Assembly (NCBI GenBank): GCA_051960855.1
Contig: JBQCDV010000038.1
Location: 2,625-66,624 of the forward strand
Reading direction: 5' to 3'
DNA: 64,000 bases
DNA from: Actinomycetales bacterium
GTDB lineage: Bacteria; Actinomycetota; Actinomycetes; JAJZTN01
The notes under the pieces were generated by a model. That model was not told the origin of the DNA. It searched no databases and saw only the letters and a program-made list of their open reading frames with translations. Within the stretch, counting starts at the first letter, position 1. Each line of letters opens with the position of its first letter. This document shows positions 17,665-41,068 of this stretch, one piece after another. Both the position numbers and the translations under genes were made by a program.

Positions 17665-17686
17665 GGCTGGTCAGCCCCTCCTTGGT

Positions 17687-17731: not shown

Positions 17732-17835
17732 AGAACACGCCTCCCCGGGTGGCCTTCGAGCCTACCCGCGGTGATCACCACTCACGCCCGGTCGCGAGCT
17801 GGCCGGACGACCCGCGAGGTGCAGGCGCCGATCTC

Positions 17836-19077: not shown

Positions 19078-19103
19078 CGGGCCGCGACGATACCCCGCGA
19101 TAC

Positions 19104-24254: not shown

Positions 24255-25528
24255 CCGGAGTGGGCGGCGTTCGTGGTCTCGTCGCCGGTGTTCGCGTCGC
24301 TGCGTGAGGTGCTGCCCACACTGCTACCTGCAGTGCTACCGGGACCGCTCTCGCTGGGGGAGGCGGTCGACGCCGTTCCTGGCCCGGGCTGCCCGTCGCC
24401 GGAGAGCAGCGCCATCGCTTTGCGCGACTGGGAGTAGGCCCGGTAGACCGCGCGCGTCAGGCCGAGACGACGACCGCCCTTGCGTGGCTGCTGCGGGTCG
24501 AAGTCGTCGTTGTCGACGGCCAGCGGCGAGTCCTCGCGGGTGAGCAGGGCCACGATCTCCTCGCGCACGATGCGGCGCAGGTCGTCCTCGGTTGCCATGT
24601 CGAACCATTCCTCGGATGTCGGGTCGGCGCCGCTCGGGGGCAGGAGCGGGTAGAGCGGGATCGTCGTGCGGGTGGTGCCCTTCGGGTCGTAGCGCGCCTC
24701 GTAGGCATCCACGACGTCGTCGGCGGGGCCGTCCATCAGCATCCGGCCGTCCTCCAGCCAGATCGCGCGGTCGCAGGTCTCGCGGACCACGGCTAGCGAG
24801 TGGCTCACGAGGAACACGGTGCCGGCCTCCTCGCGCAACTCGGCGATGCGGCGTTCGCTCTTCTGCCGGAACTCCGCATCGCCCGTCGCCAGCGCCTCGT
24901 CGATGAGCAGCACGTCGTGGGACTGTGCGGCTGCGATCGCGAACCGCAGGCGTGCTCCCATCCCGGAGGAGTAGGTGCGCATGGGCAACGAGATGAAGTC
25001 TCCGATGCCGGCGAAGTCGACGATGTCCTCGTAGGAATCCTTGACCTGCTGGGGCGTCATGCCCATCGCGAGACAGCCGAGCTCGACGTTGCGCTCCCCG
25101 CTCAGGTCGTTCATGAGGGCCGCGTTGACGCCGAGCAGGCTCGCCTTGCCCCGCGTCCAGACGGTCCCGCGCTCGGGCGGCAGGAGGCCGGCGATCGCCC
25201 GTAGCAGCGTCGACTTGCCCGACCCGTTACGGCCGATGAGCCCGATGGCCTCACCCTCGTACGCGGTGAAGCTGACGCCCTTGACGGCGTGGACCTCGCG
25301 CAGGGTGGGGGCATTCTGCCGACGCAGGATGCGGCGGAACGCGTTGGCGGCGTTGCCCTTGCCCGTCCCACTGCCGTAGACGCGGTAGACGACATGGACG
25401 TCGTCGACCACCACCGTCGGAGGCACGTCGAAGGGCCACGGGGTGGAGGACTCCACCGGTGCCGAGGGTGTGTCGCTGGCGCCCGGTTCAGCGAACCGGA
25501 AGCGGGTGTCCGTCTCAGCCGCGGCCAT
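24251..25528 (-). CDS. ABC transporter ATP-binding protein, polysaccharide/teichoic-acid export type (TagH/Wzt-like), with a ~150-aa low-complexity C-terminal tail
   Basis: Walker A 'GRNGSGKSTL', signature 'YSSGMGARLRFA' and Walker B 'LLIDEALATGD'. Stop overlaps the convergent 1345-aa gene. Start overlaps the permease stop. Confidence 0.85.
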   Translation of the reverse strand: MAAAETDTRFRFAEPGASDTPSAPVESSTPWPFDVPPTVVVDDVHVVYRVYGSGTGKGNAANAFRRILRRQNAPTLREVHAVKGVSFTAYEGEAIGLIGRNGSGKSTLLRAIAGLLPPERGTVWTRGKASLLGVNAALMNDLSGERNVELGCLAMGMTPQQVKDSYEDIVDFAGIGDFISLPMRTYSSGMGARLRFAIAAAQSHDVLLIDEALATGDAEFRQKSERRIAELREEAGTVFLVSHSLAVVRETCDRAIWLEDGRMLMDGPADDVVDAYEARYDPKGTTRTTIPLYPLLPPSGADPTSEEWFDMATEDDLRRIVREEIVALLTREDSPLAVDNDDFDPQQPRKGGRRLGLTRAVYRAYSQSRKAMALLSGDGQPGPGTASTASPSESGPGSTAGSSVGSTSRSDANTGDETTNAAHSG

Positions 25529-26340
25529 AGGTCTCCTCCCCTCGGTAGAAGACGGTGAAGCCGACGAGCAGGCCGACGACCGCCCAGACGATCGCGTACA
25601 GCCAGGTGTGCGGCCCGGCGTTGTGCTCCCGCAGCAGGGCGTCGCGGATGAGTTCGATGTAGACGGAGCCCGGGTTGGCTGCGAGTAGGAACTTGATGAG
25701 GTGGGGTGCGTCCTTGGCCTTGTCCTGGATCGAGTAGAAGACGCCCGAGAGGTAGAGCCAGGTGCGCAGGATGAACGGGAGCAGCTGGCTGACGTCCGGG
25801 ATGTTCGCGCCGATGCGTGCCATCACGAAGCTGGCGCCGACGTTGAACATCGTCTGCAGCAGCAGGGCGGGAAACACGAGGAGCCAGGCGAACGTCAGCG
25901 GCTCGCCGGTCAGCAGCACGATGATCGCCAGCACCACCATCGAGACCGCCAACTGCTGCAGCTCGATGATGACCAGCGCCAGCGGCAGGGTGGCCCGCGG
26001 GAAGTGCATTGCCCGGATGAAGCCGAGGTTGTCGATGATGGCGCGGGCACCGCTCTGGACCGAACGCTGCGTGTAGGTGAAGACGAAGATGCCGCAGACG
26101 AGGTAGGCGATGTAGTTGGGAACGCCGGACTTCGTCTTCAGCAGGATGCCGAACACGAGGTAGTAGACCGCGGCGTTGAGCAGCGGCGTGAGGACCTGCC
26201 AGACCTGCCCGAGGCGGGCGGTGCTGTACACGGCGAGGTTGCGCGCACTGGCGAAGGAGACGATGAAGTGCCGGCGACCCCAGAGCTCGGCGAGGTACTG
26301 CCCGAGCGGAGGGCGCTCCGCCGACTGCTGCAGGCCCATC
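25515..26340 (-). CDS. ABC-2 type transporter permease (TagG/Wzm-like)
   Basis: Six TM helices with an ABC-2 pattern ('GRRHFIVSFASARNLAVYSTARLGQVWQVLTPLLN'). Start chosen at the internal ATG (MGLQQ). The ORF extends to 26708 with a non-membrane, low-complexity N-terminus that is probably not translated. Confidence 0.7.
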
Positions 26341-26633
26341 CGCTCCGCGAACGCGCCGAGGGACTCGCCCGAGCGCTGGGCAAAGTGCGAGGAGGCCTCG
26401 CGCGGGTCGTTGTCAGGAGCCGGTGAGCTTCGGCCCGAGTCGTCGCCCGGGCCCCCACTGCCGCCGGTCCTGGCCACCGCTGTCGTCACGGGGGCCAAGC
26501 CTAGGCGAGCGGCCCGCCTGTGCCTGCTCACCCCGGCGCCTCGTCGTCCACAGACGGCAATCCGTTGCTCTTTCCTCCACAGCGCACTGGCATCCCACCT
26601 GCTCAGGGGGCCGTCGCGCCTAACTTCGAACCT

Positions 26634-28214
26634 ATGTACGAGTCCTCGAATGACCCTCCTATCCCTGAGGGAGACGGCTGTGGGAGTGGCGGCTTCCGGC
26701 GAGCGCATGCCGCTCCCGAGGGCGGCGCCTTCACCTTCAGCGGTCGCAGCCCTGGGGCGGAGGTGGTGGCGGACCTGGAGCGCCTGGAGCTACCGCGATG
26801 CTCGGACGCGGAGGTCGTGGAGGTCATCAAGGCGTGGCAAGCGGTGGAGTCGCGCGCGAAGGCACGACTGTGGGAGGCGGTGACGGAGTTCATGCGGCGT
26901 CGCCCCCGAGAGGGACGAGGCGAGGACCCCGGTGCGCCGTGGGACCGGGACGTATCGGGATTCGCCACGGCAGAGGTCGCGGCTGCCTTGAACCTGCCGT
27001 TGTCCGCCGCTGACAACCTCGCGGCGGAAGCCGCCGAGGTCCAGCAGCAGTACCCGGCGCTGGTCGAGTCCTTGGGCGAGGGCCGCGTCAACCCCTCCCG
27101 CTTCTACACGGTCGTCCGCGGGCTGCGCGGGGTGGACGAGAAGGTCGCCCAGGCGGTGCTGGAGGCGGTGCTTCCCGATGCCGAGGGCCCGGTGTCCAAC
27201 GGGACCCTGCGCAGCCGCCTGCGGCGTGCGGTGATGCGCGCCGACCCGGAGGCCGCCGTTCGCCGCTGCGAGGAGGCCGCCCGCCGGGACACCGCCCTGG
27301 TCCTCCACCCGAGAGAGGACGCGATGGCCAGCCTCGTGGCGACCGCCCCCGCGGTGGACCTGGTCGCCGTGCACACGGCGGTCGACGCCTTCGCGAAAAC
27401 GCTGGCCGACGCCGGCGCTCCAGGGGCGCTGGCCAAGCTTCGCGTGCGCTCCCTTCAGGAGCTCGTCCTCACCCACCCCGCCATCACGGGCCTGGGTCCA
27501 TGGCAGCGCGCTCTCGGACTGCCCGTCACCAGTGACACCTCCCGCACCCGTGGAGGGGCGCCTGCCGGACGGGAGCGGGGCCAAGCGACTGGCGGGGTCG
27601 GCTCGACAGCGGACGACGCCGTGGGAGGCGTCGACGACGAAGGGCGGCTCCAGCTGGGGCTGCCGTTGAGTGAGATCCCCACCTTCGGCTGCGGATCCGC
27701 CGGCAGGTTCTCCTCACTGACGATGGTGGCCATTCCATATGACGTGCTCCTGGGCGTCAGCGAGGCGCCTGGCGAGCTCGTGGGCTACGGGCCGCTTCCG
27801 GCTCCGGTGGCCCGCGCTATCGCCGGCGATCAGACCGGTACCTGGCAGAGACTCGTGACCGATCCGCTCAGCGGCTCCGTGCAGGACTTCGGGACGACGC
27901 GCTATCGGCCTCCGGCCAAACTGGCCGGCCACGTCGTCACCCGAGACTGGACATGTCGAGCTCCCGGCTGCTCTGCCCCTGCCGTCGTCTGCGACCTCGA
28001 TCACGCGACCCCGTACCGCCATGACGGTACGGGTGGGGCCACCTGCGCGGCCAACCTCATCCCGCTGTGCCGTCGGCACCACCGGTGCAAGACGTTCACG
28101 GGCTGGACGGTGCGGCGTGAGCCCGACGGCAGAGTCGTCTGGCGCACACCCACGGGGCACGAGTACGTGACCTATCCCGACGGGCCGGTCCAGGACTGGG
28201 CGGCGCAGGACTGA
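26634..28214 (+). CDS. DUF222 / HNH endonuclease-domain protein (13E12-repeat family)
   Basis: C-terminal HNH motif 'CDLDHATPYRHDGTGGATCAANLIPLCRRHHRCK' and a DUF222-like N-terminal region. Start set at ATG 26634 (MYESSND). The ORF is open from 26520. Confidence 0.75.
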   Translation: MYESSNDPPIPEGDGCGSGGFRRAHAAPEGGAFTFSGRSPGAEVVADLERLELPRCSDAEVVEVIKAWQAVESRAKARLWEAVTEFMRRRPREGRGEDPGAPWDRDVSGFATAEVAAALNLPLSAADNLAAEAAEVQQQYPALVESLGEGRVNPSRFYTVVRGLRGVDEKVAQAVLEAVLPDAEGPVSNGTLRSRLRRAVMRADPEAAVRRCEEAARRDTALVLHPREDAMASLVATAPAVDLVAVHTAVDAFAKTLADAGAPGALAKLRVRSLQELVLTHPAITGLGPWQRALGLPVTSDTSRTRGGAPAGRERGQATGGVGSTADDAVGGVDDEGRLQLGLPLSEIPTFGCGSAGRFSSLTMVAIPYDVLLGVSEAPGELVGYGPLPAPVARAIAGDQTGTWQRLVTDPLSGSVQDFGTTRYRPPAKLAGHVVTRDWTCRAPGCSAPAVVCDLDHATPYRHDGTGGATCAANLIPLCRRHHRCKTFTGWTVRREPDGRVVWRTPTGHEYVTYPDGPVQDWAAQD

Positions 28215-28277
28215 GCGGTCCAGGACTGGGCGGCGCAGGACTGAGCGGCGCAGGACTGGGCGGCGCAGGAGCCCGCT
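28188..28277. repeat. 30-bp tandem direct repeat x3 (GTCCAGGACTGGGCGGCGCAGGACTGAGCG; third copy degenerate) spanning the HNH gene stop and the convergent GT2 stop
   Basis: Direct reading. Copy 1 encodes the last 8 codons plus TGA of the HNH gene. Copies 2 and 3 repeat the same codons plus stop downstream. Confidence 0.8.
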
Positions 28278-29187
28278 AGATGACGGGCGGCCTGCCGAGC
28301 AGGGTCATGCGCCAGGCGGTGGTCCAGCGCATGGGCTGGCGCGGGCCGGCGTCGGTCCTCCATCCCTCGGCAAAACCGCGCAGCCAGACAGCCAGGTCGC
28401 GGCTGGGTCGCAGCCGGACAGTCATGAGCGCCGTCCAGACGGCGAGGTAGGCGACCGCCATTGGCCACGGCAGGCGTCGGCGCGCAAGCCACACTCGGTT
28501 GCGCGCGTTGAGGCGGAGGTAGGCGGCATGGCGGCCAGGCGTGGTCGCCGGATGCTCGACAACGACCAACGGCTCGTAGGCGATCGCCCACCCGGCGTCG
28601 AGGGCGCGCCAGGCCAGGTCCGTCTCCTCGTGGGCGTAGCCGAACTCGTCGGGCAGACCGCCGACGGACTCGAGCACCGTCCGTCGCACGGCGCATGCGC
28701 CTCCCAGGAAGGTGGTGACGTCCGAGCCACGCCGGGGGTCTCCCACCAGCACTCGCGGCACGTGTCGCCGTTGCACGGCTCCAGAGCCGGGGTCGGCCAG
28801 CAGGAAGCTCAGGATTCCCAGACCGGGGCGGTTGGCGAAGGAGGTGACGATGACACGTCCCGCATCTTCGGCAGCGAACTCGGCGTCATCGTCGAGGAAG
28901 GCCACGACTGGTGCCGCGGTCGCGGCCCAGCCCACGTTGCGGCCACCGGGGATGCCGAGGTTCGTCTCGAGGTCGATGGCCCTGACGCCGGGCATCGGTG
29001 GGACGGGAGCGCCGTTGCCGACGACGACGATCTCCGCCGTCACGTCGCGGAACCGGCGGACGCTGTCGACCGCGCGCGCCAGTTCGGCGGGGCGGTCGCC
29101 CATTGTCAGGATGACGACGGCGAGGTCCGGCGAGGCGCCGTTCGGGCTGGTAGTGCCGCTGGCCGCGGGAGTTGCCGGCGGCTTCAT
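28276..29187 (-). CDS. Glycosyltransferase family 2
   Basis: 'LAVVILTMGDRPAELARAVDSVRRF ... VVVGNG ... VAFLDDDAEF' GT-A with DxD. Start ATG (MKPP) overlaps the upstream stop (ATGA). Confidence 0.75.
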   Translation of the reverse strand: MKPPATPAASGTTSPNGASPDLAVVILTMGDRPAELARAVDSVRRFRDVTAEIVVVGNGAPVPPMPGVRAIDLETNLGIPGGRNVGWAATAAPVVAFLDDDAEFAAEDAGRVIVTSFANRPGLGILSFLLADPGSGAVQRRHVPRVLVGDPRRGSDVTTFLGGACAVRRTVLESVGGLPDEFGYAHEETDLAWRALDAGWAIAYEPLVVVEHPATTPGRHAAYLRLNARNRVWLARRRLPWPMAVAYLAVWTALMTVRLRPSRDLAVWLRGFAEGWRTDAGPRQPMRWTTAWRMTLLGRPPVI

Positions 29188-30047
29188 CGCAGCCGGCTCG
29201 ACAGGACGATGCTCGCCAGATGCAGGCACCACTGCAGCACCGCGACGACGAGGAAGGCGACCACCAGCACGCGGGTGGCGGGCACAGGGGCGGTGGCCGA
29301 GCCGGCGACGACGTCAACGATCCCCGCGACCAGAAGCAGCAGCGAGGCCTCAGTCCCCCCGATGATGCGGTGGAAGGAGATGCGGGCGGCGAGGGCGCGG
29401 GCACGGGCGACGCTCGAGGAGCGGGGTGTCGTCGCCTCGTCCGTCACCGCAGGCATTCCTGCGCGGGCGCGGGCGACATCCACCAGGTCCGTCTCAGCCT
29501 TGATCAGCACGACCCCGAGGCCGGCAAGTGCCCCGACGAGGGCGTAGCCGTTGATGCCGGAATGAGCCGCGCGGATCCCGGCAGCCACCATCACGGCGGA
29601 CTCCACGACGTAGTGCCCCACGCGATCGAGGTAGACCCCGAGGAGGCTCAGCCTGCCCGTCCACCGAGCCACTTCGCCGTCGGAGCAGTCGAGCAGCAGA
29701 TAGAGCTGGATGAGCAGGGCCGAGAGAACCGCGCCCCAGACGGACGACCACAGCAGCGCCACTGCGCCGAGAAGGCCCACCACGATCATCCCGGCCGTCA
29801 GGCCGTTGGGACTGGCCCCCACCCTCACGAAGATGCGGGTGGCATAGATGGACAGGTAGCGCATGTAGAGGACGCCCGCCCAGTGCTCACCGCTGCGACG
29901 TCCGATGATGCTCGGTGGCTGCGTCACGGCCCGAAGCTCAGCGATGCTGGGGCGAGCCGGACGGTCCGGTCGAGCCGCACGGTCCGGTCGACCCGGTTGG
30001 TGGGGGGAGGCGCCGGTCATGTGGGACCCGGAAGATGTCTCAGCCAT
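29184..30047 (-). CDS. CDP-alcohol phosphatidyltransferase family membrane protein
   Basis: Signature 'DCSDGEVARWTGRLSLLGVYLDRVGHYVVE', i.e. D-G-x2-A-R-x8-G-x3-D-x3-D. About 6 TM helices. Confidence 0.8.
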   Translation of the reverse strand: MAETSSGSHMTGASPHQPGRPDRAARPDRPARPSIAELRAVTQPPSIIGRRSGEHWAGVLYMRYLSIYATRIFVRVGASPNGLTAGMIVVGLLGAVALLWSSVWGAVLSALLIQLYLLLDCSDGEVARWTGRLSLLGVYLDRVGHYVVESAVMVAAGIRAAHSGINGYALVGALAGLGVVLIKAETDLVDVARARAGMPAVTDEATTPRSSSVARARALAARISFHRIIGGTEASLLLLVAGIVDVVAGSATAPVPATRVLVVAFLVVAVLQWCLHLASIVLSSRLR

Positions 30048-31101
30048 CGAGAGCCGCCGCGAAGGCGCTCACCGCCTTCCGCGCCTGGTCGAGGCTGAGG
30101 TCCTCGTGCTCGAGGATCGTGTAGCGGTCCGGGCGAGTCGAGGGCGCGAAGACGACCGCCTCAGCGAACTGCTCGTCCGACAGCCCGAGGTCCGCCGGTC
30201 GGCGTGGCAGCCCGTAGTGGCGCAGGCAGGAGTCGATCTGGTCCAGACGCAGCTCGTCGCCGCGCAGCCACGTCGCAAACAGCGCGCCGACTCCGGCGAG
30301 GTCGCCGTGGTGCGCCGTTCCGGGGTACAGCTGGTCGACGGCATGCAGGATCTCGTGGCAGGCCCCGCTGCATGGCCGGCTCGTGCCTGCCACGGCCATC
30401 GCCATGCCGGACAGGACCAGGGCTTCGGCGAGACTGGTCAGGAAGGCATCGCTGTCCAACGGGTCGCGCCGGTGGAGCACGCATTCGGCCGCGGTGCGCG
30501 CGAAGGTCACCGCGAGCCCGTCGATTGGCTCGTCACGCTCCCGTGCCGCCAGCTCCCAGTCGGCGATTGCCGAGAGGTTGCTGACCGCGTCGCCGATTCC
30601 GGAGCGCACCATCTCGACCGGCCCGCTGCGCACATAGTCGAGGTCGACGACGACGGCGAGCGGCATGGCGACTCCAAAGGAGCCCTTGCGCCCTCCCTCG
30701 GTCTCGAGGCTCGAGACCGGAGAGCAGATGCCATCGTGCGAGAGGTTGGTGGCCACGGCGACCATCGGCAGGCCCAGGCGCGTGGCGGCGAACTTTGCCA
30801 CGTCGAGGGTTCGCCCGCCGCCGATCCCGAGGACGGCGTCGTAGGAGTTGCCAGCGATCGCTGCGACGAGCGCGGTGGCAGCTTCGACGCTGCCGGAGGA
30901 GACCGTGAAGGCGTCCGCTGCTCCGAGCGTCGGCCGCACAGCCTCCAGAATCGCCTCGCCCTGCCCCGGTCCCACTGCGATGGCGACACGGCCGGACGTC
31001 GACACCCACTGCTCGGCGAGCAGGGTCCCGAGCTCGGCGACCGCTCCGGCTCGGACGTCGATGAACAGCGGGGAGGCGACCATCCGCGCCAGCAGCGGCA
31101 T
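30040..31101 (-). CDS. Iron-containing alcohol dehydrogenase family enzyme, sn-glycerol-1-phosphate dehydrogenase-like (AraM/EgsA family)
   Basis: 'AVLGIGGGRTLDVAKFAA' (GGGxxxDxAK) and 'GIGDAVSN ... ACHEILHAVD' are metal/NAD(P) motifs of the G1PDH / glycerol-DH / DHQS-like fold. Start at the internal ATG (MPLLARM), which overlaps the upstream stop by 1 nt. Confidence 0.65.
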   Translation of the reverse strand: MPLLARMVASPLFIDVRAGAVAELGTLLAEQWVSTSGRVAIAVGPGQGEAILEAVRPTLGAADAFTVSSGSVEAATALVAAIAGNSYDAVLGIGGGRTLDVAKFAATRLGLPMVAVATNLSHDGICSPVSSLETEGGRKGSFGVAMPLAVVVDLDYVRSGPVEMVRSGIGDAVSNLSAIADWELAARERDEPIDGLAVTFARTAAECVLHRRDPLDSDAFLTSLAEALVLSGMAMAVAGTSRPCSGACHEILHAVDQLYPGTAHHGDLAGVGALFATWLRGDELRLDQIDSCLRHYGLPRRPADLGLSDEQFAEAVVFAPSTRPDRYTILEHEDLSLDQARKAVSAFAAALDG

Positions 31102-31874
31102 CAGCTGCCCCGTGTCGCGACGATGCCGGCAGCGATGCCCTGCGCGCGGGCCAAGTCGTCGTGGTTGTCGATCTCGACCCAGTCCACGTGTCCGATCGGC
31201 GCCACGTCGACCCGCACACCGCGGTCGGCGAGCTCCTGGTAGCCGTCCTCGTAGTACAGCTGGGGGTCGCGCTCCCACGTGGCCTGCAGCGCGGCGACGA
31301 GGTCGTCCACCACGGGCGGCTCGATCAGCGTGACACCGATGTACTCACCGGTCGCGTCCTCCGGAGGCATCAGCTTGGTGATGCGGCGCACGCCCTGGCC
31401 CTCAGACCAGACGACCTTCATCTCCTCGTCGGCGAGCGACTTCTCGGTATCCAGCGCGAGGACCAGACCCGGACCGGGCAGGGTCCCCTTCGCGGCGAGC
31501 AGGGTGTGCTCGACCGACACCGGGTGCACGGTGTCGCCGTTGGCCAGCACCACCCCCTGGGCGAGGAGGTCACGAGCGCACCAGAGCGAGTAGCAGTTGT
31601 TCCACTCCTCGGCCTTGTCGTTGTGGACGAGCTCCAGCTGGACGCCGTAGCGCTCCTCGAGAGCCTGCTGCCTCGCGGCCACCTGGTCCGCGGCGTAGCC
31701 GACGACGACGGCGACGTCGGTGAGCCCGACCGCTGCGAAGTTCGCCAGCGTCAGGTCCAGCACCGTCGTCTCCTGCTCCGTGCCCGCGCCGATCGGCACC
31801 AGGGTCTTGGGCAGGGTGTCTGTCCACGGACGCAGCCGGCGTCCGGCCCCTGCCGCGAGCACGAGTCCGATCAT
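31101..31874 (-). CDS. Sugar/polyol-phosphate nucleotidyltransferase (LicC-like NTP_transferase)
   Basis: 'MIGLVLAAGAGRRLRPWTDTLPKTLVPIG' is a glycine-rich NTP_transferase N-terminus. About 257 aa. Confidence 0.75.
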   Translation of the reverse strand: MIGLVLAAGAGRRLRPWTDTLPKTLVPIGAGTEQETTVLDLTLANFAAVGLTDVAVVVGYAADQVAARQQALEERYGVQLELVHNDKAEEWNNCYSLWCARDLLAQGVVLANGDTVHPVSVEHTLLAAKGTLPGPGLVLALDTEKSLADEEMKVVWSEGQGVRRITKLMPPEDATGEYIGVTLIEPPVVDDLVAALQATWERDPQLYYEDGYQELADRGVRVDVAPIGHVDWVEIDNHDDLARAQGIAAGIVATRGS

Positions 31875-31887
31875 GATGCGGATTCTC

Positions 31888-33708
31888 CTATTCGTCGCTG
31901 TCGCGAGTGTTGCTGGCGTGCATGTCCCTGTGTGGCCTCACCGTGCGGACATGGCTGCCCGAGTCTGCCGTGGCCCGAGCCGGCCGGGCGCTGCCGGGTC
32001 GCACGACGGGTCGCACGACGGGGCGGCGGCGCGGGGCGGTCTCGCGGAACCTGCGCGAGGCCCCCGCCACCACGCAGGCCGCCACCCACGCTGTCAGAGC
32101 CACCAAAGCGGTGACGCCGAGCCGCCCCCCGCCGAACGCGGCGACCCACACCAGCGCAAGTCGCCCGACAGCACCGAGAGTCGCCGCCTGCGGCGGCCAG
32201 ACGGGCAGCCGGGGCGCGGCCGTGAGTCGGTACACGACGTCGTAGTGCCGCTGCGCGAGGACCAGGACGAGCACGAACGCCGCTGCGGGGGCGTGCCGAC
32301 CGCCCGGATCGCGCGCGAGGAGGACGCCGAGCAGCCCGACCGCGGCGTACTCGACGGCGCGGAGCGCGGCGGGCGCCAACCACCACCAGCGCACGAGGGC
32401 GGCGCCACGCGGCAGCCGCGGACCGGTCGGGGCGAGGTCGGCCATCGACGCCAGCACGGCTGCGATGGACTGCGCCGCGCTCTCGCCGGGGGCCGGTCGG
32501 CGCAGGGCGCGCAGGAGCCGACCTCCGACGGTCCAGGCGGCAGCGAGCAGGCCGAGGACGAGCAGCGCGACGAAGACGACTCGGGCGTTCGTGACGGCGG
32601 CGAGCACCGCGATGAGCAGCCAGCGCTCACCGATGGGCAGCGCGAGCACGCGACGCAGCGCCACCCCTCTGGTGCTGGCCATGCGTCCGGAGAACAGCTC
32701 CGCCGGTGCGGACTCGTCCACTCGAGTGGCATCCGCGACCGCAGCGGCGGCCGTGGGTTCGGGCGCGGGCCCGGGTCCGGGTTCAGGCGCGGGTCCGGGT
32801 TCGGGCGCGGGTCGTGCCCTGTCCACGGCGCTGAGATGGAAGCCGAAGTCGGCGACGTGGCGGGCGGTCTGCAGCGCGATGCACAGCGTCGCCAGCAGCC
32901 AGACGTCATGACCCTGCCGAGCGGCCCCATAGGCGAGGCCGCCGTAGACGACGAACTCCTTGAGCCGGTCGAGGGCCGCATCCAGCCACGCGCCGCGCTC
33001 GGAGTAGGAGACGGCGTAGCGGGCGAGCTGCCCGTCGACGCAGTCGAGCGCGAACGACAGCTCGAGCAGGAGCGCGCCGACCACCATCCACACCCTCACC
33101 CCCGTCCCGAACGCCGCAGCGGTGGCGAGCGCGGTCAGCAGGGCGAGCCAGGTCACGGCGTCGGGCGTCAGACGCCGGCGGGCGAACCACCGTGCGAGAT
33201 AGCGCGACCACGGGCTGATGGCGGCGCTGGTGAAGACTCCGTCGGCGGACTTCACTGCCGACCGGAGGCGCACCGCCTCCTCGTCCACGGTGTCGCAGGC
33301 GGCGACGGCGGCGGCCGCAGCCTCGGCGGTCGGGGCGGCTGTCGACACCAGCGGTTCCGGCACGGGGCGTGTGGGGGTCAGCCCTGAGGTGACGAGGGCC
33401 GCGGTGAGGGAATCCGGCAGGAGGGAGCCCGCCTCGGCAGCCGCGAGGTCGAGAGCGGGCCGGTGCTCCGGGTCGACGGAGAGCAGACCACCTGCGGCGC
33501 GCACGCCGCGGCGTTCGTCACGCAGCAGCAGCCGGAGGGCGTGGTCGTGCCCGACCCACGCGCCGTCTACCAGCACCACGGTCTCAGCCGGGTCGACCCG
33601 ACCGAGCGTTTGCGGGTCCGACGACACCCTCACGTCGCGGACTCGACCCCCTCCCACGAGGCGGACGCGATGACGCAGCTCGCCAGGGTCGGAGGAGCCA
33701 CGCGGCAC
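31888..33708 (-). CDS. Three-part membrane protein: an N-terminal cytoplasmic domain of unknown function, a CDP-alcohol phosphatidyltransferase domain, and a C-terminal multi-TM domain
   Basis: The central 'DCVDGQLARYAVSYSERGAWLDAALDRLKE' is a second CDP-OH-phosphotransferase signature. A Pro/Glu/Gly/Ala linker follows (PAPEPGPAPEPGPGPAPEP, 32756-32818), then a hydrophobic C-terminal third. Confidence 0.7.
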   Translation of the reverse strand: MPRGSSDPGELRHRVRLVGGGRVRDVRVSSDPQTLGRVDPAETVVLVDGAWVGHDHALRLLLRDERRGVRAAGGLLSVDPEHRPALDLAAAEAGSLLPDSLTAALVTSGLTPTRPVPEPLVSTAAPTAEAAAAAVAACDTVDEEAVRLRSAVKSADGVFTSAAISPWSRYLARWFARRRLTPDAVTWLALLTALATAAAFGTGVRVWMVVGALLLELSFALDCVDGQLARYAVSYSERGAWLDAALDRLKEFVVYGGLAYGAARQGHDVWLLATLCIALQTARHVADFGFHLSAVDRARPAPEPGPAPEPGPGPAPEPTAAAAVADATRVDESAPAELFSGRMASTRGVALRRVLALPIGERWLLIAVLAAVTNARVVFVALLVLGLLAAAWTVGGRLLRALRRPAPGESAAQSIAAVLASMADLAPTGPRLPRGAALVRWWWLAPAALRAVEYAAVGLLGVLLARDPGGRHAPAAAFVLVLVLAQRHYDVVYRLTAAPRLPVWPPQAATLGAVGRLALVWVAAFGGGRLGVTALVALTAWVAACVVAGASRRFRETAPRRRPVVRPVVRPGSARPARATADSGSHVRTVRPHRDMHASNTRDSDE

Positions 33709-33737: not shown

Positions 33738-35441
33738 GTGTCAGCAGGGCAGTCGGGGCGGTCTCGCAAGGGTTGGCGGGGCTGGCCTGCCATCGTAGGG
33801 GCCGTGAGCGGACCGCCCGACGTCCCTGCCGCTGTCCCGGCTGCTGTCTCTGCCGCTGTCCCAGTCGGCCCCCCAGCTGACGACGTCGTCAGCGTCGTCG
33901 TCAGCGTTGTCGTCATCGTCTACAACGACGCCGCGCGGCTCCCAGCCGCCGTCGCCTCCGCGCTCGCCCAGCAGCTGCCCCGGCCAGCCGCGGAGGCGGA
34001 CCACGCGGCAGCGCGGCCGGTTCTCGAGGTCGTCGTCGTCGACGACGCGTCGACCGACGCCACACCGCAGGTGTGCGCGGAGCTGGCCGCCGACCCGCGC
34101 GTGAGGGTCCTGCGTCGCAGTGCCAACAGCGGCGGCTGCTCGGCCCCCCGCAACGACGGCATGGAAGCCGCGCGCGGTCGCTGGGTGATGTTCCTCGACA
34201 GCGACGATGTCCTGCCGCCGGGCGCTGTCGCAGCACTGGTGGGCGCCGGCGAAGCCAGCCACGCCGACGTCGCCAGCGGTCTGTGCCAGCGCGTGTACCT
34301 CGACAGTGGCGCGGTCCGGCCGTGGTGCCCTGAGCTCTACTCGCGCCCTCGCATCCTTGCCGGCATCGACGACGAGCCCACGCTCTGGCGCGACAGCCTC
34401 AGCACCAACAAGGCCTACCGCCGCACCTTCCTCGAGCATCACCGGCTGCGGTTCCCGCTCGGCATGCACTTCGAGGACCTGGTCTTCTCCGCTCGCGTCT
34501 ACCTCGCCGCCTCGCGAATCGCCCTCGTCCCGGATCCTGTGTACCGCTGGCTGGTTGCGGGGGAGGACGTCCCTGCCGTCAGCATCTCGATGCGCCGGCA
34601 CTCCCTCGACAGCCTGAGGGATCGCGTCCGGGCGCACGAGCTGATCGACGAGGCGCTGGCGACCGCTCGCCCGGCTGACGCCCGGTTGCGGGCGGCCAAG
34701 GACGCGAAGTTCGTCGAGTCCGACCTGCGGCTCTACCTCGACGACCTGTGGCGCCGCGACGATGACTACCGGTCCGGCTTCCTCGAGCTGCTCCAGCCGT
34801 ACCTGCGCAGCGTGCCCGACTCGTCGTGGCGGCTGATGACGCCGCTGCCGCGGGAGGCGGCCGCCGCCGTGCGGGCGGGGGACCTCGACGCCGCACAGGA
34901 CGTCGTCGAGCGCCTCCGTCGCGCTGACCGTCGCTCCCTCACCTGTCTGGCCCGTCTCGACACGATCGACGAACGCCGCCCCGTCGCGTCCGTCGTGCTC
35001 GTCGGTGGCCCTGGTGAGGGCCCGGAGCGCCTGAGTGTCGACCTGGTGCCGGTTGTGGCTGGGCTGGCCGTCCCGCGGCGCGTATGGCTGCGGCGGCCGG
35101 TGACGGCGCGGGCGGCTGACACCGAGCGGCGCCGCTGGGAGCTCGAGCTCGTGCCTCCGCCGGTGCTGCCGTTGCTGCCGGTGTCGTGGCGGCTCGCCGT
35201 CGCCGCACCGCCGCTGGTCGCGCCGCAGACCGTTGCCCCGCCGCGCCTCTGGCGTGAGCCGCCGACGGTGGGTCGCTGGACCTGGGACGTCAGCCGCGGC
35301 GGCGACGTTCAGCTGTCGGACGCGAGGTCGCGACGGTGGGAGCGCCGCGTCGACGCGTGGCGGCGCCGCTGGCGCTGGACGTCGACGGGTCGACTCGTGC
35401 TGGCGGGACGCAGCCGCCTCGGTCGTAGGGTGGCGCCATGA
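33738..35441 (+). CDS. Glycosyltransferase family 2 (paralogue of the GT2 domain of the 1345-aa fusion)
   Basis: '[24 protein letters not shown] ... VVVDDASTDATP ... FLDSDDVLPPGAVAAL' is near-identical at the nucleotide level to the 20217..24254 N-terminus. An alternative GTG start is at 33804. Confidence 0.75.
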   Translation: MSAGQSGRSRKGWRGWPAIVGAVSGPPDVPAAVPAAVSAAVPVGPPADDVVSVVVSVVVIVYNDAARLPAAVASALAQQLPRPAAEADHAAARPVLEVVVVDDASTDATPQVCAELAADPRVRVLRRSANSGGCSAPRNDGMEAARGRWVMFLDSDDVLPPGAVAALVGAGEASHADVASGLCQRVYLDSGAVRPWCPELYSRPRILAGIDDEPTLWRDSLSTNKAYRRTFLEHHRLRFPLGMHFEDLVFSARVYLAASRIALVPDPVYRWLVAGEDVPAVSISMRRHSLDSLRDRVRAHELIDEALATARPADARLRAAKDAKFVESDLRLYLDDLWRRDDDYRSGFLELLQPYLRSVPDSSWRLMTPLPREAAAAVRAGDLDAAQDVVERLRRADRRSLTCLARLDTIDERRPVASVVLVGGPGEGPERLSVDLVPVVAGLAVPRRVWLRRPVTARAADTERRRWELELVPPPVLPLLPVSWRLAVAAPPLVAPQTVAPPRLWREPPTVGRWTWDVSRGGDVQLSDARSRRWERRVDAWRRRWRWTSTGRLVLAGRSRLGRRVAP

Positions 35442-36418
35442 CGTGGTTGATCACTGGCGGAGCAGGCTTCATCGGGGCACATGTCGTCGCGGCGATGCGC
35501 GCGGCTGGAGAGAGCGTCGTGGTGCTCGACGATCTGTCGACGGGCAACCGCGAGAGCGTTCCGGGCGACGTGCCGTTCGTCGAGGCATCGGTGCTGGACC
35601 TCGAGGCCGTGCGCCAGGCGATGCGCGACCACGAGATCGACGGCGTCGTGCACATCGCCGCCAAGAAGCAGGTCGGCGAGTCCGTCGACAAGCCACTGGC
35701 GTACTACTGGGAGAACGTCGAAGGCCTGCGCCGGCTCCTGCAGGCGTGCGTGGACGAGGGCGTGGACCGCTTCCTCTTCTCGTCATCCGCCGCGGTGTAC
35801 GGCAACCCGCCCGTGTCCGTGGTCGAAGAGGACACTCCCTGCGCCCCAGAGAGCCCCTACGGCGAGACGAAGCTGATCGGGGAGTGGCTGCTGCGCGACG
35901 TCGCACGGGCCCACGGGCTGAAGTGGCTGGCACTGCGCTACTTCAACGTGGCGGGCGCCGCGGCTCCGGAGCTGGGAGACCCGGGTGTGTTCAACCTGAT
36001 CCCCATGGTCTTCGAGCGGCTGACCGACGGGAAGGCTCCGCTGATCTTCGGCGACGACTACCCGACGCCGGACGGGACCTGTATCCGCGACTACATCCAC
36101 GTCGCGGACATCGCCTCCGCCCACGTGGCTGCCGCCGCGGCCATTCGAGACGGTCGGGAGACCGCCGGTGTCCTCAACATCGGCCGGGGCGAGGGGGTAT
36201 CCGTCCGTGAGGTCGTCGACCTGGTCCTCGAGGTCACCGGCCGCACCGATGTTGACCCGGAGGTCGTCGGACGCCGGGCGGGTGACCCCGCCGCCTACGC
36301 CGCTTCCGGCCGTGCCATCCGGCAGCGGCTCGGCTGGGCGCCGCAGCACGACCTTCAGGACATGGTGAGCTCGGCGTGGGCGGGATGGGTCAGGCGCCAC
36401 CCCGACGCGCTTCGCTGA
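35438..36418 (+). CDS. galE: UDP-glucose 4-epimerase
   Basis: 'MTWLITGGAGFIGAHVV' and 'YGETKLIGE' are short-chain dehydrogenase/reductase (SDR) epimerase motifs. ATGA overlap with the upstream GT2. Confidence 0.85.
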   Translation: MTWLITGGAGFIGAHVVAAMRAAGESVVVLDDLSTGNRESVPGDVPFVEASVLDLEAVRQAMRDHEIDGVVHIAAKKQVGESVDKPLAYYWENVEGLRRLLQACVDEGVDRFLFSSSAAVYGNPPVSVVEEDTPCAPESPYGETKLIGEWLLRDVARAHGLKWLALRYFNVAGAAAPELGDPGVFNLIPMVFERLTDGKAPLIFGDDYPTPDGTCIRDYIHVADIASAHVAAAAAIRDGRETAGVLNIGRGEGVSVREVVDLVLEVTGRTDVDPEVVGRRAGDPAAYAASGRAIRQRLGWAPQHDLQDMVSSAWAGWVRRHPDALR

Positions 36419-38384
36419 GCTGCTCTCGCGCGGTCAGCTCTCGGACGCGCTGGTAGCGGCGGAGCGCCAGGGGATCGCCGTTCAGCTCTGGGGCGGGGGC
36501 CCAGCCGGGCCGCACGTCGGTCGCCGTCTCGAGGAACTTCTGCTCGTCTGCCTCCCACGTGTGTCCCAGGGAGTGCCGACACAGCACATAGCCCTGGCTC
36601 GTCGTGCGGTAGATCCCACCGCCCGCGTCGCGCACCGCAGTGAGCAGGTGCAGGTCGACGCCGCGTGGCTGAGGAGCCCAGCCGCCCACCGCCGCAAGGT
36701 CCTCTGCACGGATGAGGATGGTTCCGCCTGCCACCCACTCGACGTAGCGCTCCGGGCTCGCCTCGACGCGCCGGTGCAGCGTGCGGTCGGACGTCGCCAG
36801 GTACACCCATTCGACGAGCATCCCGGTCACCGTCGCTCCCGACCACGTCGAGGCTTGCACCAGGTCGGTGAGGTGATGCGGGCCGTACCAGTCGTCATCG
36901 TCGAGTTTCGCGAGGAATGCCCCGGACGCGGCGCGTGTGGCGTGCTGAAGGACGGTTCCCAGAGGGAGGTCCGCCGAGGCGGCAAGCATCTGGACCGCTA
37001 TGCCGCGTTCACGGAGGGGGGCCAGGAGCCGATCGAGCTCGGCGGCAGGCACGTCCAGGTCGTGCAAGGCCAGCACCAGCTCCAGTTCGCCATGGGCGGC
37101 GAAGTCCTGCCGGGCCACCGTGGCGAGGGCCAGGTCGAGGTAGGACAGGCGCCGGGTCGCCAGGAGGACTGAGACCGAGGGGCGGCGCGGGCCGAGGGCC
37201 CGCAGGCCGGCCCCGTCAAGGAGGCGACGCCATGCGCCGACTGTTGCGTGGTCGCGCAGAGCAGCCCTGCGCAGTTGCAAGGAGTGGAGCTCGCGCTCGT
37301 CGGGGCCGCCCTCACAGGCCTCGTGGCCTCTCGCATGCGGGGAGGCGAGCAACTCGGAAAGTTCAGCGCCTACGAGCCGGTTCACGGTCAGCGGCAGCCG
37401 GTCCCCCGAGATGGGTACCTGGGCGGCGGCGAGCTGTGTGATGAGTCGGGCGGCTGTGATTGGCGCGACGTCGCCCAGGGCGCTCACGTCCACAGACCGC
37501 AGCCTCCGGAGGGGATGCAGGTGTCGGAACGACAGGGGCGCTTGTCCTCGGCCGAGGTCGACGACGACCGCGTCGTCGTCGTCGACGACCCGGAGGCGTC
37601 CGTCGGTGACGAAGCGCCCGACACCGTGAATCTGATCCCGCTGAAAACCGTGGGGGTTGCAGGTGATGACGTCGACGGGCGGCACGCACTCGGACACGAG
37701 CAGCCGCGCGGGGCCGCCGTGCTGCTGCTCGTTCGGGTCCAGCTCGCCCACGCCCAGCACCACATCGAAGGGCGAGATGTGCGGGTTGTCGGATCGCCAG
37801 GTGTGGTGGGCGTTTGCCACGGTGCGAGCCGCAGAGTCCCCCGACACCCAGGCGAGGTCTACGCCGTCCTCAACACCGACGCGCATTCCCGCCAGCGGCA
37901 GGCGCCGGCGCCCGAGCTCGCTAGCCGCGAGCAGCGTTGACAGTACTGCGTGAACGCGGACGGCGGCTGGCAGCTGGACACGCAGCTGCACTCCGCGAGC
38001 GGGTGCGGGCAGCTGTTCGAGACTCGCCCGAACCGCTGGGCCCAGCCGGGGATCTGAGAGCGAGATGGCGCCTCCCCGGCCGACCCACGGCTCCTCGGTG
38101 ATGAGTTGTACGACACGACTCCGCCCGAGCGACGGCGCAACAGCAAGCAGCGTGCGAAGCTCGGCGAAGCTCGAACACGCGATGACCACGCGCTCCCAGG
38201 TCCGCGCGTAGTCCTCCAGCGCACCCACCGAAGGTGCGGGCCACTCGAGCCGCTGGCAGTCGGGGGGCAGGTCGGGTGCCCCCTTCTCGACTGCAAGGTC
38301 GCTCGCGCCCGCTAGGAGCAAGCACGTCCCAGCCTCGGCACCTGGTGAGGTCACGGCACACTCCCACGTGTTGCAGCCCGGCAT
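36390..38384 (-). CDS. Large glycosyltransferase: a ~400-aa N-terminal domain of unknown function plus a C-terminal GT2 domain
   Basis: C-terminal 'SVSVLLATRRLSYLDLALATVARQ ... FLAKLDDDDWYGPHHL' is GT-A with DxD. No motif was recognised in the N-terminal region. The 3' end overlaps galE by 29 bp. Confidence 0.6.
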   Translation of the reverse strand: MPGCNTWECAVTSPGAEAGTCLLLAGASDLAVEKGAPDLPPDCQRLEWPAPSVGALEDYARTWERVVIACSSFAELRTLLAVAPSLGRSRVVQLITEEPWVGRGGAISLSDPRLGPAVRASLEQLPAPARGVQLRVQLPAAVRVHAVLSTLLAASELGRRRLPLAGMRVGVEDGVDLAWVSGDSAARTVANAHHTWRSDNPHISPFDVVLGVGELDPNEQQHGGPARLLVSECVPPVDVITCNPHGFQRDQIHGVGRFVTDGRLRVVDDDDAVVVDLGRGQAPLSFRHLHPLRRLRSVDVSALGDVAPITAARLITQLAAAQVPISGDRLPLTVNRLVGAELSELLASPHARGHEACEGGPDERELHSLQLRRAALRDHATVGAWRRLLDGAGLRALGPRRPSVSVLLATRRLSYLDLALATVARQDFAAHGELELVLALHDLDVPAAELDRLLAPLRERGIAVQMLAASADLPLGTVLQHATRAASGAFLAKLDDDDWYGPHHLTDLVQASTWSGATVTGMLVEWVYLATSDRTLHRRVEASPERYVEWVAGGTILIRAEDLAAVGGWAPQPRGVDLHLLTAVRDAGGGIYRTTSQGYVLCRHSLGHTWEADEQKFLETATDVRPGWAPAPELNGDPLALRRYQRVRELTAREQLSEARRGGA

Positions 38385-38558
38385 GATCGGTGGTCGCCGC
38401 AGCGTAGCGAGGCCCTACCCTCGACTGTCGTGCCTCGTCGACGACTGCTCCCCTGGCGTTCCGGTGTCGAGTCCGCAATTGCCGTCGAGCCAACGAGCGC
38501 CTCTCGCCGGATCGATAGCCGCTGCTCGCGGCAGTGGCCCCTTCCCGTCCGCGTTGGC

Positions 38559-39917: not shown

Positions 39918-41068
39918 AGCGACAGCAACGCGAATTCCTGCTCCCACCGATCCGCAACGACCTGAGGGCTGAACCGCTGGACCGACGCGTGCGCTGCCTC
40001 ACCCAGGCGACGGCGCAGCGTCGGGTCGACCATGAGCCGCTCCATCGCAGCGGCTAGCGCGTCGAGGTTGCCTGGCGGAAGCACGAGTCCGTCGGACTCG
40101 TCGGTCACGAGCTCGCGCACTCCTGGTGCCACGTCGAAGGCGATGCACGGAAGGCCGTACTCCATTGCCTCCGTGAGGACGACCGGCATTCCCTCGCTAC
40201 GTGACGACAGCACGTAGATCGAGGCCTCCTGCAGGGCTGCACCGACGTCGGTCGTGGCACCCATGAGCTGGACGCTCCCCTGCAGCTCGAGTTCGTCAAT
40301 CTGCTCCTGGAGTGACGCCCGGAGCGGCCCGTCCCCGTAGATCCGCAGCCGCCATTCCGGGTGGCGAGGGGTCAGGCGAGCCCAGGCGGAGATGAGCATG
40401 TCGAAGCCCTTCTCCGGGGCCAAGCGCCCAAGAGACACGACGGTGGGAGCAGTGAGGTCGCTCGTGCGTTCAGCGAGGACGCCTAGTGGGTTGGGAATGT
40501 AGCCCGCGTTCGTCATCCCGTCGAAGGCCCACAGGTCCGCGTCGCGCTGTGTCAGGAGCAGGAACCGATCCGCTCCCGCAAAGAAGCGCTTCACTCGGGC
40601 GTATCGCCCTGACTGACGTGAGGCCTGATAGGACTCGTGGCTCATTCCGATGACCAACGCTCCGGCAGTGTCTGCCAACCGCACCCACTCCATCGCCCAG
40701 ACTTGGGTAACGATGACAATCGGGTCGTCGGCCTGCCGAATCAGTGCCGTCAACTTCGCGGCGCCGCTGCGCTGGACGGAAACGCGGCGCCGGCGCTCGA
40801 TCTGGCGCCTGACATTGAGATTGTGCAGCAAGTGCGGCGGATGCCAGTAATTTGGCGGGTCCGCCTCATGAAGAATGGTGACAGGGTGTCCGTAGGTCGC
40901 CGGGTCATAGTGAGCATCGCGAGAGTGGACGATGCCGACCAGACGGACACGGTAGCCCCTTCCCGCAAGAAGCTCCGCGAGCGACAGGACGAAGCGGGTC
41001 ATCCCTCCCAGGTCCTCGATGTTGTTGGCCACGATGAAGACGTCGCGGGAACGGATCTGATCGCTCAC
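39914..41068 (-). CDS. Glycosyltransferase family 4 (group 1)
   Basis: 'VFIVANNIEDLGGMTRFVLSLAELLAGRGYRVRLVGI ... EGMPVVLTEAMEYGLPCIAFD'. GTG start overlaps the upstream stop (GTGA). Paralogous to the C-terminal domain of the 1345-aa fusion. Confidence 0.8.
   Translation of the reverse strand: MSDQIRSRDVFIVANNIEDLGGMTRFVLSLAELLAGRGYRVRLVGIVHSRDAHYDPATYGHPVTILHEADPPNYWHPPHLLHNLNVRRQIERRRRVSVQRSGAAKLTALIRQADDPIVIVTQVWAMEWVRLADTAGALVIGMSHESYQASRQSGRYARVKRFFAGADRFLLLTQRDADLWAFDGMTNAGYIPNPLGVLAERTSDLTAPTVVSLGRLAPEKGFDMLISAWARLTPRHPEWRLRIYGDGPLRASLQEQIDELELQGSVQLMGATTDVGAALQEASIYVLSSRSEGMPVVLTEAMEYGLPCIAFDVAPGVRELVTDESDGLVLPPGNLDALAAAMERLMVDPTLRRRLGEAAHASVQRFSPQVVADRWEQEFALLSL

Follow-up and report, generated by a model that had tools for sequence, protein, structure and literature searches.

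Five co-directional genes in an actinobacterial genome

The 64,000-nucleotide stretch of contig JBQCDV010000038.1 from an Actinomycetales bacterium (assembly GCA_051960855.1) that was analysed here, referred to below as the window, carries on its minus strand at 28276-33708 a module of five co-directional genes, whose products we propose make and use a CDP-activated glycerol phosphate. Because the G+C content of the whole window is 72%, genes were called from third-position GC combined with a listing of open reading frames (ORFs), and their products were assigned with Pfam and NCBIfam models. In order of transcription the genes are:

31888-33708, minus strand: gene 1, long CDP-alcohol phosphotransferase, 606 aa (CDP-OH_P_transf and DUF5941)
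31101-31874, minus strand: gene 2, LicC-like nucleotidyltransferase, 257 aa (NTP_transferase)
30040-31101, minus strand: gene 3, dehydrogenase homologous to sn-glycerol-1-phosphate dehydrogenase (G1PDH; EgsA/AraM family), 353 aa (Fe-ADH_2)
29184-30047, minus strand: gene 4, short CDP-alcohol phosphotransferase, 287 aa (CDP-OH_P_transf)
28276-29187, minus strand: gene 5, the last, family 2 glycosyltransferase (GT2), 303 aa (Pfam Glycos_transf_2, 32.5 bits), with no membrane helix

The first-pass annotation, made from the letters of the window alone, had described five minus-strand genes chained by ATGA and 1-nt overlaps. The gene set stands, whereas the chaining is only partly as described. Overlaps were found at three of the four junctions (1, 8 and 4 nt): the nucleotidyltransferase and dehydrogenase genes share 1 nt within TGATG, the dehydrogenase and short phosphotransferase genes meet at ATGGCTGA with an 8-nt overlap if the latter starts at ATG 30047, and the short phosphotransferase and GT2 genes share the 4 nt of ATGA. 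At the remaining junction the long phosphotransferase and nucleotidyltransferase genes do not overlap; the 13 nt between them include GGAGA. The start codon is uncertain for two of the genes. For the long phosphotransferase, GTG 33708 gives 606 aa and public gene calls give 581 aa; for the short enzyme, public calls give 247 aa against the 287 aa used here. Because conservation among homologues of the short enzyme begins at residue ~30, its start is placed at either ATG 30047 or ATG 30020, the second of which would leave a 19-nt spacer after the dehydrogenase gene. The start of the dehydrogenase at ATG 31101 yields the N-terminus MPLLARM, which is the consensus of its 352-aa homologues. A metagenome-assembled 'Actinomycetes bacterium' (GCA_051960235.1) encodes a protein with 100% identity to one of the five. 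Pfam detected the TagF Glyphos_transf domain (PF04464) in none of the five genes.

The dehydrogenase groups with G1PDH

The dehydrogenase matched Pfam Fe-ADH_2 (PF13685) with 106.6 bits, at a cut-off of 28, and its best NCBIfam model was NF002022 (NAD(P)-dependent G1PDH), with 247.6 bits over positions 31-345 of 350; the GldA (66 bits) and AroB (19.7 bits) models scored lower. Comparison with PDB sequences gave the same ranking, with E-values from 2e-42 (Methanocaldococcus jannaschii) to 1.5e-36 for archaeal G1PDHs, 1e-14 or weaker for GldA, and 4e-5 for dehydroquinate synthase (DHQS). The protein aligns with G1PDH from end to end, and its GDxxSN, SGxxH and HG(D/E) motifs match those of the M. 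jannaschii enzyme. In an alignment of 14 sequences D171 was nearly invariant and H249 and H265 were invariant; we take the Asp, His and His of these motifs to be the metal ligands. The earlier annotation had left the enzyme between G1PDH, glycerol dehydrogenase and DHQS-like proteins, and by these scores its place is with G1PDH, apart from glycerol dehydrogenase, DHQS and plain alcohol dehydrogenases. To our knowledge, all characterised members of the G1PDH clade reduce dihydroxyacetone phosphate (DHAP) to sn-glycerol-1-phosphate.

At least 6888 homologues of the dehydrogenase were found at E ≤ 1e-10. Among the 120 best matches listed, identity was ~67-72%, with one at 91%, and those with a named source all came from Actinomycetes or Actinomycetota assemblies. 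Actinobacterial G1PDH homologues have been on record without a known role, only a speculative one in ether-lipid synthesis having been put forward (PMC6431249, PMC5059525). Archaeal EgsA and Bacillus subtilis AraM belong to the same family as the module enzyme, as judged from the best NCBIfam model, the PDB matches and the conserved metal-binding residues. However, EgsA and AraM supply sn-glycerol-1-phosphate to GGGPS/PcrB for ether lipids, whereas the module dehydrogenase is invariantly paired with a cytidylyltransferase-like gene. A GGGPS/PcrB domain was absent from the scanned ORFs of the window and of the related loci examined (described below), and an AraM/PcrB-type ether-lipid role was therefore rejected, the prenyltransferase partner being absent.

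The nucleotidyltransferase resembles LicC

The nucleotidyltransferase belongs to Pfam NTP_transferase (PF00483), and its best PDB sequence match was pneumococcal LicC (E 2.6e-12). The two proteins share LAAGxGxRLRP...PK and NNxYSL, and LAAGAGRRLRPWTDTLPK of the module protein aligns with LAAGLGTRLRPLTENTPK of LicC. An AlphaFold2 (AF2) model of the protein had a pLDDT of 91, and a fold search with this model returned LicC at the top, together with PntC and the Thermotoga maritima inositol-1-phosphate cytidylyltransferase (TmIPCT), the latter two giving the highest TM-scores. Homologues are named 'phosphocholine cytidylyltransferase family protein' by NCBI. Asked whether it is LicC-like or of the IspD/TarI type, both sequence and fold answer LicC-like; it resembles neither IspD/TarI nor TagD.

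Two phosphotransferases related to enzymes with soluble donors

The product of the first gene had been described as a fusion containing a second CDP-alcohol phosphotransferase. It is indeed a fusion, but one of three parts: an N-terminal domain (aa ~1-150), a phosphotransferase core (aa ~158-297) and DUF5941, a helical membrane extension (aa ~345-556). The N-terminal domain was modelled as a degenerate, nucleotidyltransferase-like α/β fold with pLDDT 83-94, and this stretch of ~150 aa is also conserved in Streptomyces 'DUF5941 domain-containing proteins' of ~600 aa. The core carries the full DxxDGxxARx8GxxxDxxxD signature (DCVDGQLARYAVSYSERGAWLDAALD). Between the core and DUF5941 lies a Pro-rich linker predicted to be disordered (aa ~292-344); an 18-nt tandem repeat at 32755-32813 (minus strand) encodes its PAPEPGP units, and Streptomyces homologues do not have the linker.

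Foldseek aligned the N-terminal domain and membrane core jointly to Archaeoglobus fulgidus AF2299, and the core together with DUF5941 aligned best to cholinephosphotransferase 1. The core plus DUF5941 is thus similar to cholinephosphotransferases of the 10-helix type, whose donor is a soluble CDP-alcohol and whose acceptor is a lipid. CDP-alcohol phosphotransferases with lipid acceptors have three or four extra C-terminal helices (PMC4634129); the DUF5941 helices agree with this rule, and a lipid acceptor is predicted for the long enzyme. Identity to eukaryotic CHPT1/CEPT1 of the Kennedy pathway is only 9-13%; their donor is CDP-choline, whereas the predicted donor of the long phosphotransferase is CDP-glycerol and its gene lies in a bacterial operon with its own precursor dehydrogenase. 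Some homologues are named phosphatidylglycerophosphate synthase by JGI.

The short phosphotransferase (Pfam PF01066, 30.2 bits) has about six membrane helices by hydropathy, and its best PDB match was AF2299 (E 1e-6). Both module enzymes are closest to AF2299 and IPCT-DIPPS, by PDB sequence comparison and, for the long enzyme, also by Foldseek; comparison within the CDP-OH_P_transf family therefore places them nearest to members with soluble CDP-alcohol donors. AF2299 binds CDP-glycerol and accommodates its glycerol, and neither AF2299 nor DIPPS processes lipids (PMC4634129). AF2299 and IPCT-DIPPS, like the long protein, fuse a nucleotidyltransferase-like N-terminal domain to a CDP-alcohol phosphotransferase; they take a soluble CDP-alcohol, and such a donor is predicted for the long protein as well. 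In contrast, they have six membrane helices, act on soluble acceptors and make solutes, whereas the long protein adds the DUF5941 helices and is encoded in an envelope-polymer operon with an exporter.

The module is conserved across Actinomycetota

A scan of one genome per species yielded 80 related loci, to which the Streptomyces venezuelae locus (L081) was added to give 81, each with 10 kb on either side. The 80 loci span Sporichthyaceae, Frankiales, Streptosporangiaceae, Nocardiopsis, Actinomadura, Micromonospora, Nocardioidaceae and Solirubrobacteraceae. At every one of them (80/80) the nucleotidyltransferase gene lies directly upstream of the dehydrogenase gene. A CDP-alcohol phosphotransferase gene lies directly downstream of the dehydrogenase gene at 59 of the 75 loci with enough sequence, and a second such enzyme, with Asp at the fourth position of the signature (Asp-type), is encoded upstream of the nucleotidyltransferase gene at 35 of 73. 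An orthologue of the GT2 gene follows the short phosphotransferase gene at 48 loci. The smallest arrangement is that of Micromonospora, where a minimal trio of nucleotidyltransferase, dehydrogenase and a 240-aa phosphotransferase adjoins a family 4 glycosyltransferase (GT4).

In S. venezuelae the module forms a seven-gene operon in the order long phosphotransferase, nucleotidyltransferase, dehydrogenase, short phosphotransferase, GT2, ABC2_membrane and ABC_tran, the last two being the genes of a TagGH-type transporter. TagF and LCP genes were not found within 10 kb of this operon. In two further loci (L001 and L004) TagGH genes lie inside the module and a GT2-TagF fusion stands at its end.

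Two gene neighbourhoods were recorded in addition. At the S. venezuelae locus (neighbourhood recorded at 17090-21791) the operon is directly followed by a TetR gene and an apparent hopanoid/squalene cluster with a polyprenyl synthase, an amine oxidase and two SQS_PSY genes; neither the window nor other lineages keep this arrangement, and the link was not treated as functional. In a Streptosporangium locus (L038, 5514-14778) two genes take the place of the long phosphotransferase gene: one encodes a 764-aa protein with a weak NTP_transf_3 match and the phosphotransferase core, the other a 251-aa DUF5941 protein. Here a PfkB kinase gene and a metallo-β-lactamase-fold gene follow the GT2 gene, and upstream of the module there is an IspD gene.

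The surrounding locus

Judged by its neighbours, the module sits in a cell-wall glycopolymer locus. The features around it were identified by scans of the window:

15114-16295, minus strand: LCP ligase
16189-17670, minus strand: LCP ligase
17836-19299, minus strand: Acyl_transf_3 protein
20217-24254, plus strand: GT2-TagF-GT4 fusion, 1345 aa (Pfam Glyphos_transf 329 bits, with GT2 and GT4)
24251-25528, minus strand: TagH-like ABC transporter ATPase (Pfam ABC_tran; NCBIfam TagH models 185-195 bits, below their curated cut-offs)
25515-26708, minus strand: TagG-like ABC-2 permease (Pfam ABC2_membrane)
26520-28214, plus strand: DUF222 gene, between the TagG-like gene and the module
33738-36418, plus strand: divergent GT2-GalE pair
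between the GT2-GalE pair and the GT2-TagF fusion: an unassigned 664-aa protein and a GT4
36390-38384, 38415-39380 and 38430-39917: ORFs without Pfam matches
41065-44127, minus strand: GT2-TagF fusion, 1020 aa (Pfam Glyphos_transf 304 bits, with GT2)

The two TagF-family domains reported earlier around the module are thus present, at 20217-24254 (plus strand) and 41065-44127 (minus strand). By analogy with Streptomyces, where the TagGH genes are in the same operon as the module, the TagG-like permease is a probable exporter partner. In the window the two are separated by the DUF222 gene, which looks like an insertion that split the operon, because the Streptomyces exporter genes directly follow the GT2 gene. 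DUF222 proteins often accompany HNH endonuclease domains in Actinobacteria. A 30-nt tandem repeat at 28186-28270 (2.8 copies, 96% matches; a 15-nt period can also be read) lies just 3′ of the GT2 stop codon and overlaps the 3′ end of the convergent DUF222 gene.

Across 38001-44000 the G+C content falls to 0.65-0.68, over a GT4, the GT2-TagF fusion and two or three of the ORFs without Pfam matches; here the polymer locus may be variable or may have been acquired horizontally. The locus as a whole is bracketed by housekeeping genes. On one side (5290-7021) lie purE (AIRC) and an ORF whose translation looks PurK-like; on the other (47973-61082) are a mannose-1-phosphate guanylyltransferase-like NTP_transferase (48894-50075), CofD and an F420 ligase (50979-52882), a 1180-aa GT2 and a phosphomannomutase. 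Together these genes resemble the conserved mycobacterial purEK … Lcp1 … wbbL-manB-fbiAB region.

The earlier statement that the window holds no TagD-type cytidylyltransferase and no TarI/TarJ genes was borne out: Pfam searches of all high-GC3 ORFs, tblastn with probe sequences and motif scans gave no genuine match to TagD (HxGH and RTxGISTT) or to TarI/IspD in the 64 kb. The sole match to the TagD motif, at 5699 (minus strand), lies in a spurious frame antisense to a real plus-strand gene and was discarded. TagO and TagA were likewise not found in the window, and neither TagD nor TarI was found within 10 kb on either side of the 81 related loci; L038 has the IspD-family gene mentioned above.

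A proposed pathway through CDP-(sn-1)-glycerol

We favour, as the probable reading of these data, a pathway conserved among actinobacteria in which CDP-glycerol of 'archaeal' stereochemistry is both made and consumed, with the module as its core. Consistent with its family membership, the dehydrogenase would convert DHAP to sn-glycerol-1-phosphate. The nucleotidyltransferase is then the proposed CTP:sn-glycerol-1-phosphate cytidylyltransferase, producing CDP-(sn-1)-glycerol; we infer this activity from its adjacency to the dehydrogenase at all 80 loci and from neighbouring enzymes that require CDP-linked substrates. The fold of the long phosphotransferase suggests that it would transfer glycerol-phosphate from soluble CDP-glycerol to a membrane lipid acceptor, while the acceptor of the short six-helix enzyme may be hydrophilic, such as a glycan or the end of a growing chain. 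The GT2 would glycosylate the product, and the TagGH-type ABC transporter, a member of the operon in Streptomyces and other lineages, would export it. The product is predicted to be an envelope polymer or glycolipid with sn-glycerol-1-phosphate units, made without TagD or TagF, although the two flanking TagF-domain enzymes may draw on the same CDP-glycerol pool.

The interpretation given in the first-pass annotation is supported, the computational checks that it had proposed having turned out in its favour. It had left open whether the activated polyol phosphate was glycerol-1-phosphate or glycerol-2-phosphate. The first agrees with the G1PDH type of the dehydrogenase; the second is disfavoured, because enzymes of that type reduce DHAP and because none of the genes beside the module was noticed as a candidate for a glycerol-2-phosphotransferase. 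The pneumococcal Gtp1-Gtp3 pathway likewise combines a dehydrogenase with an NTP_transferase-family cytidylyltransferase to make an unusual CDP-glycerol. Gtp1 reduces free dihydroxyacetone, hence the need for a separate phosphotransferase, Gtp3. In contrast, the module dehydrogenase is of the type that reduces DHAP, and no Gtp3-like gene is conserved with it.

Several observations weigh against the proposed pathway. The 247.6 bits of the dehydrogenase fall below the NF002022 equivalog cut-off of 413, and the protein is therefore regarded as a distinct G1PDH subfamily. The Pfam match of the nucleotidyltransferase covers its N-terminal half only, and in the fold search RmlA-type sugar-1-phosphate enzymes had E-values nearly equal to those of LicC, PntC and IPCT, so that the fold alone leaves the substrate unfixed. 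The flanking TagF enzymes might be the real polymerases of the locus, or even the only ones. Finally, 'TagD-independent' holds for the 64-kb window and for 10 kb on either side of the 81 loci, and a tagD gene elsewhere is possible.

Among these points, the signature of the short phosphotransferase deserves separate treatment. In its motif DCSDGEVARWTGRLSLLGVYLDRVGH the fourth signature Asp is replaced by His (…GVYLDRVGH, at 29690 on the minus strand), a departure from the full Class I signature. We take the fourth Asp to be the proposed catalytic base, and the short enzyme could, given its loss, be a non-catalytic partner. His-type motifs make up 53 of the 113 signature matches in the window and all loci, and they predominate among the copies directly downstream of the dehydrogenase (45 His-type, 14 Asp-type); S. 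venezuelae has Ala at the fourth position, and one locus has Gly. At the Nocardiopsis loci the only phosphotransferase is of the His type, and because no other type is present there, we consider the His-type enzyme probably active.

The phosphotransferases are also not universal. Ten full-length loci have no CDP-alcohol phosphotransferase directly downstream of the dehydrogenase, and in L012, L014, L015, L018-L020 and L056 none was found within 10 kb. Three of these were examined (L014, L018 and L056, ~11-16 kb): the nucleotidyltransferase-dehydrogenase pair lies beside a GlfT2-like galactofuranosyltransferase, TagGH and an amidase, along with several conserved proteins without Pfam matches, which could include a different glycerophosphotransferase. 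This arrangement recalls the lipogalactan of bifidobacteria, which bears sn-glycerol-1-phosphate side chains. Such loci imply that the CDP-alcohol can have users other than the CDP-alcohol phosphotransferases, and the pair behaves as a portable precursor cassette within envelope-glycan loci.

Alternative explanations

This portability lends itself to another explanation, one that we regard as unlikely: the nucleotidyltransferase-dehydrogenase pair would be only a precursor cassette that replaces TagD in feeding TagF polymerases, and the phosphotransferases would act elsewhere, for example in building a phospholipid or glycolipid anchor from CDP-diacylglycerol. Two TagF-domain proteins do flank the module in a window without TagD, a GT2-TagF fusion closes the operon in L001 and L004, and the pair occurs in some loci without any CDP-alcohol phosphotransferase. 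In addition, some TagF-like polymerases accept CDP-1-glycerol in vitro (PMC8262930). However, a TagF domain is encoded within 10 kb at only a handful of the 80 loci (four at a 100-bit threshold), and both the Streptomyces operon and the Streptosporangiales loci are without TagF. Moreover, a phosphotransferase follows the dehydrogenase at 59 of 75 loci, and these enzymes are more like AF2299/DIPPS than like users of CDP-diacylglycerol.

The best alignment of the long enzyme core and DUF5941 to cholinephosphotransferase 1, which moves its phospho-alcohol from a soluble CDP-alcohol onto diacylglycerol, the JGI name phosphatidylglycerophosphate synthase for some homologues, and the bare nucleotidyltransferase-dehydrogenase-phosphotransferase set of Micromonospora would all fit a Kennedy-type reaction, in which CDP-(sn-1)-glycerol and diacylglycerol give phosphatidylglycerol, with its natural 1′-sn head group, or a related lipid, and no polymer is made. 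We think this improbable. Besides a GT2 and a second phosphotransferase, the operon includes an exporter of the TagGH type, as is typical of polymer export, and the loci lie in wall-polymer neighbourhoods. Furthermore, Actinobacteria already possess PgsA-type phosphatidylglycerol synthesis.

The low score of the dehydrogenase relative to its equivalog cut-off, together with the divergent C-terminal half of the nucleotidyltransferase and the near-equal similarity of the RmlA fold, could instead mean that the two enzymes act on another polyol phosphate or a sugar-1-phosphate, such that the activated group is not glycerol phosphate. There is little to recommend this when set against the end-to-end alignment of the dehydrogenase with G1PDH, its retained metal-binding and active-site motifs, and the common reaction, DHAP to sn-glycerol-1-phosphate, of the characterised members of its clade. 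CDP-alcohol phosphotransferases, in turn, require a CDP-linked alcohol and not an NDP-sugar.

Synthesis of a small phosphodiester solute as in hyperthermophiles, either diglycerol phosphate from CDP-glycerol and glycerol-phosphate or the product of another alcohol, was suggested by the similarity of the nucleotidyltransferase and phosphotransferases to IPCT/DIPPS in NCBIfam and PDB comparisons and by the fact that AF2299 and DIPPS process no lipids (PMC4634129), but is very improbable for a module that is embedded among exporters, glycosyltransferases, LCP ligases and TagF genes, has a 10-helix architecture that favours a lipid acceptor, and includes no conserved phosphatase gene.

Relation to known pathways

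The favoured pathway through CDP-(sn-1)-glycerol has several features in common with the TagD/TagB/TagF pathway of wall teichoic acid synthesis: a CDP-glycerol donor, assembly at the cytoplasmic face, TagGH export and LCP ligases nearby. It differs in that TagD, with its HxGH motif and sn-glycerol-3-phosphate substrate, is absent from the module, the predicted stereochemistry being that of sn-glycerol-1-phosphate, and in that the transferases are integral-membrane CDP-alcohol phosphotransferases, as opposed to TagF-fold enzymes. A second point of comparison is a putative inositol-lipid cluster of Bacteroides and Prevotella, Kennedy-like and unconfirmed, which comprises an NTP transferase, a CDP-alcohol phosphotransferase and a HAD protein (PMC9246714). 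That cluster shares with the module a LicC-like NTP transferase and a CDP-alcohol phosphotransferase, but there the linked gene encodes myo-inositol-phosphate synthase, whereas in the module the linked genes encode G1PDH, a GT2 and an ABC exporter. A myo-inositol-1-phosphate synthase (MIPS) domain was absent from the window and the examined loci, and an inositol pathway was rejected on this ground and because the invariant partner of the nucleotidyltransferase is G1PDH.

The earlier annotation had supposed that an operon of these families had not been functionally characterised in bacteria, and we likewise found no functional study in the searchable literature. A synteny survey of 2026 lists the cluster among Streptomyces orphan genes, near tagGH and araM (PMC13118837).

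Implications

All of the enzyme families involved, and the logic of activating an alcohol before transferring it, are already known. What appears to be new is the combination of enzymes, the predicted sn-1 stereochemistry, and a teichoic-acid-like setting for CDP-alcohol phosphotransferases. Thousands of actinobacterial genomes, those of Streptomyces included, have the module. If the proposed reading is true, CDP-alcohol phosphotransferases would here take on a role new for the family, as glycerophosphotransferases of the teichoic-acid type, and the recurrent replacement of their fourth signature Asp by His would be new as well.

How Actinobacteria, which have no LtaS orthologue, come to make lipoteichoic acid is an unanswered question (PMC3196553), to which a cytoplasmic route through CDP-glycerol, with stereochemistry of the lipoteichoic acid type, would be a candidate answer. 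We raise, tentatively and as a possibility that may well prove wrong, that this operon lets Actinobacteria make lipoteichoic acid, or lipoglycans decorated with glycerophosphate, independently of LtaS. Under this scheme poly- or mono-(sn-glycerol-1-phosphate) would be built from CDP-(sn-1)-glycerol on a diacylglycerol-type lipid at the cytoplasmic face; the 10-helix phosphotransferase would prime the lipid, the His-variant enzyme would elongate the chain, and the TagGH-like transporter would export it.

Free glycerol-1-phosphate has been assumed to be absent from most bacteria, and a cytidylyltransferase activity that prefers glycerol-1-phosphate was detected in A. fulgidus lysates, its gene not having been identified (PMC8262930). 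If the lipoteichoic acid scheme is true, the nucleotidyltransferases described here would be the first glycerol-1-phosphate-specific cytidylyltransferase family to be identified, and the scheme would explain why Actinobacteria have retained an 'archaeal' G1PDH. The operon as such gives the actinobacterial enzyme, so far discussed only in connection with the archaeal/bacterial 'lipid divide' (PMC6431249, PMC5059525), a concrete candidate role in envelope glycerophosphate chemistry.

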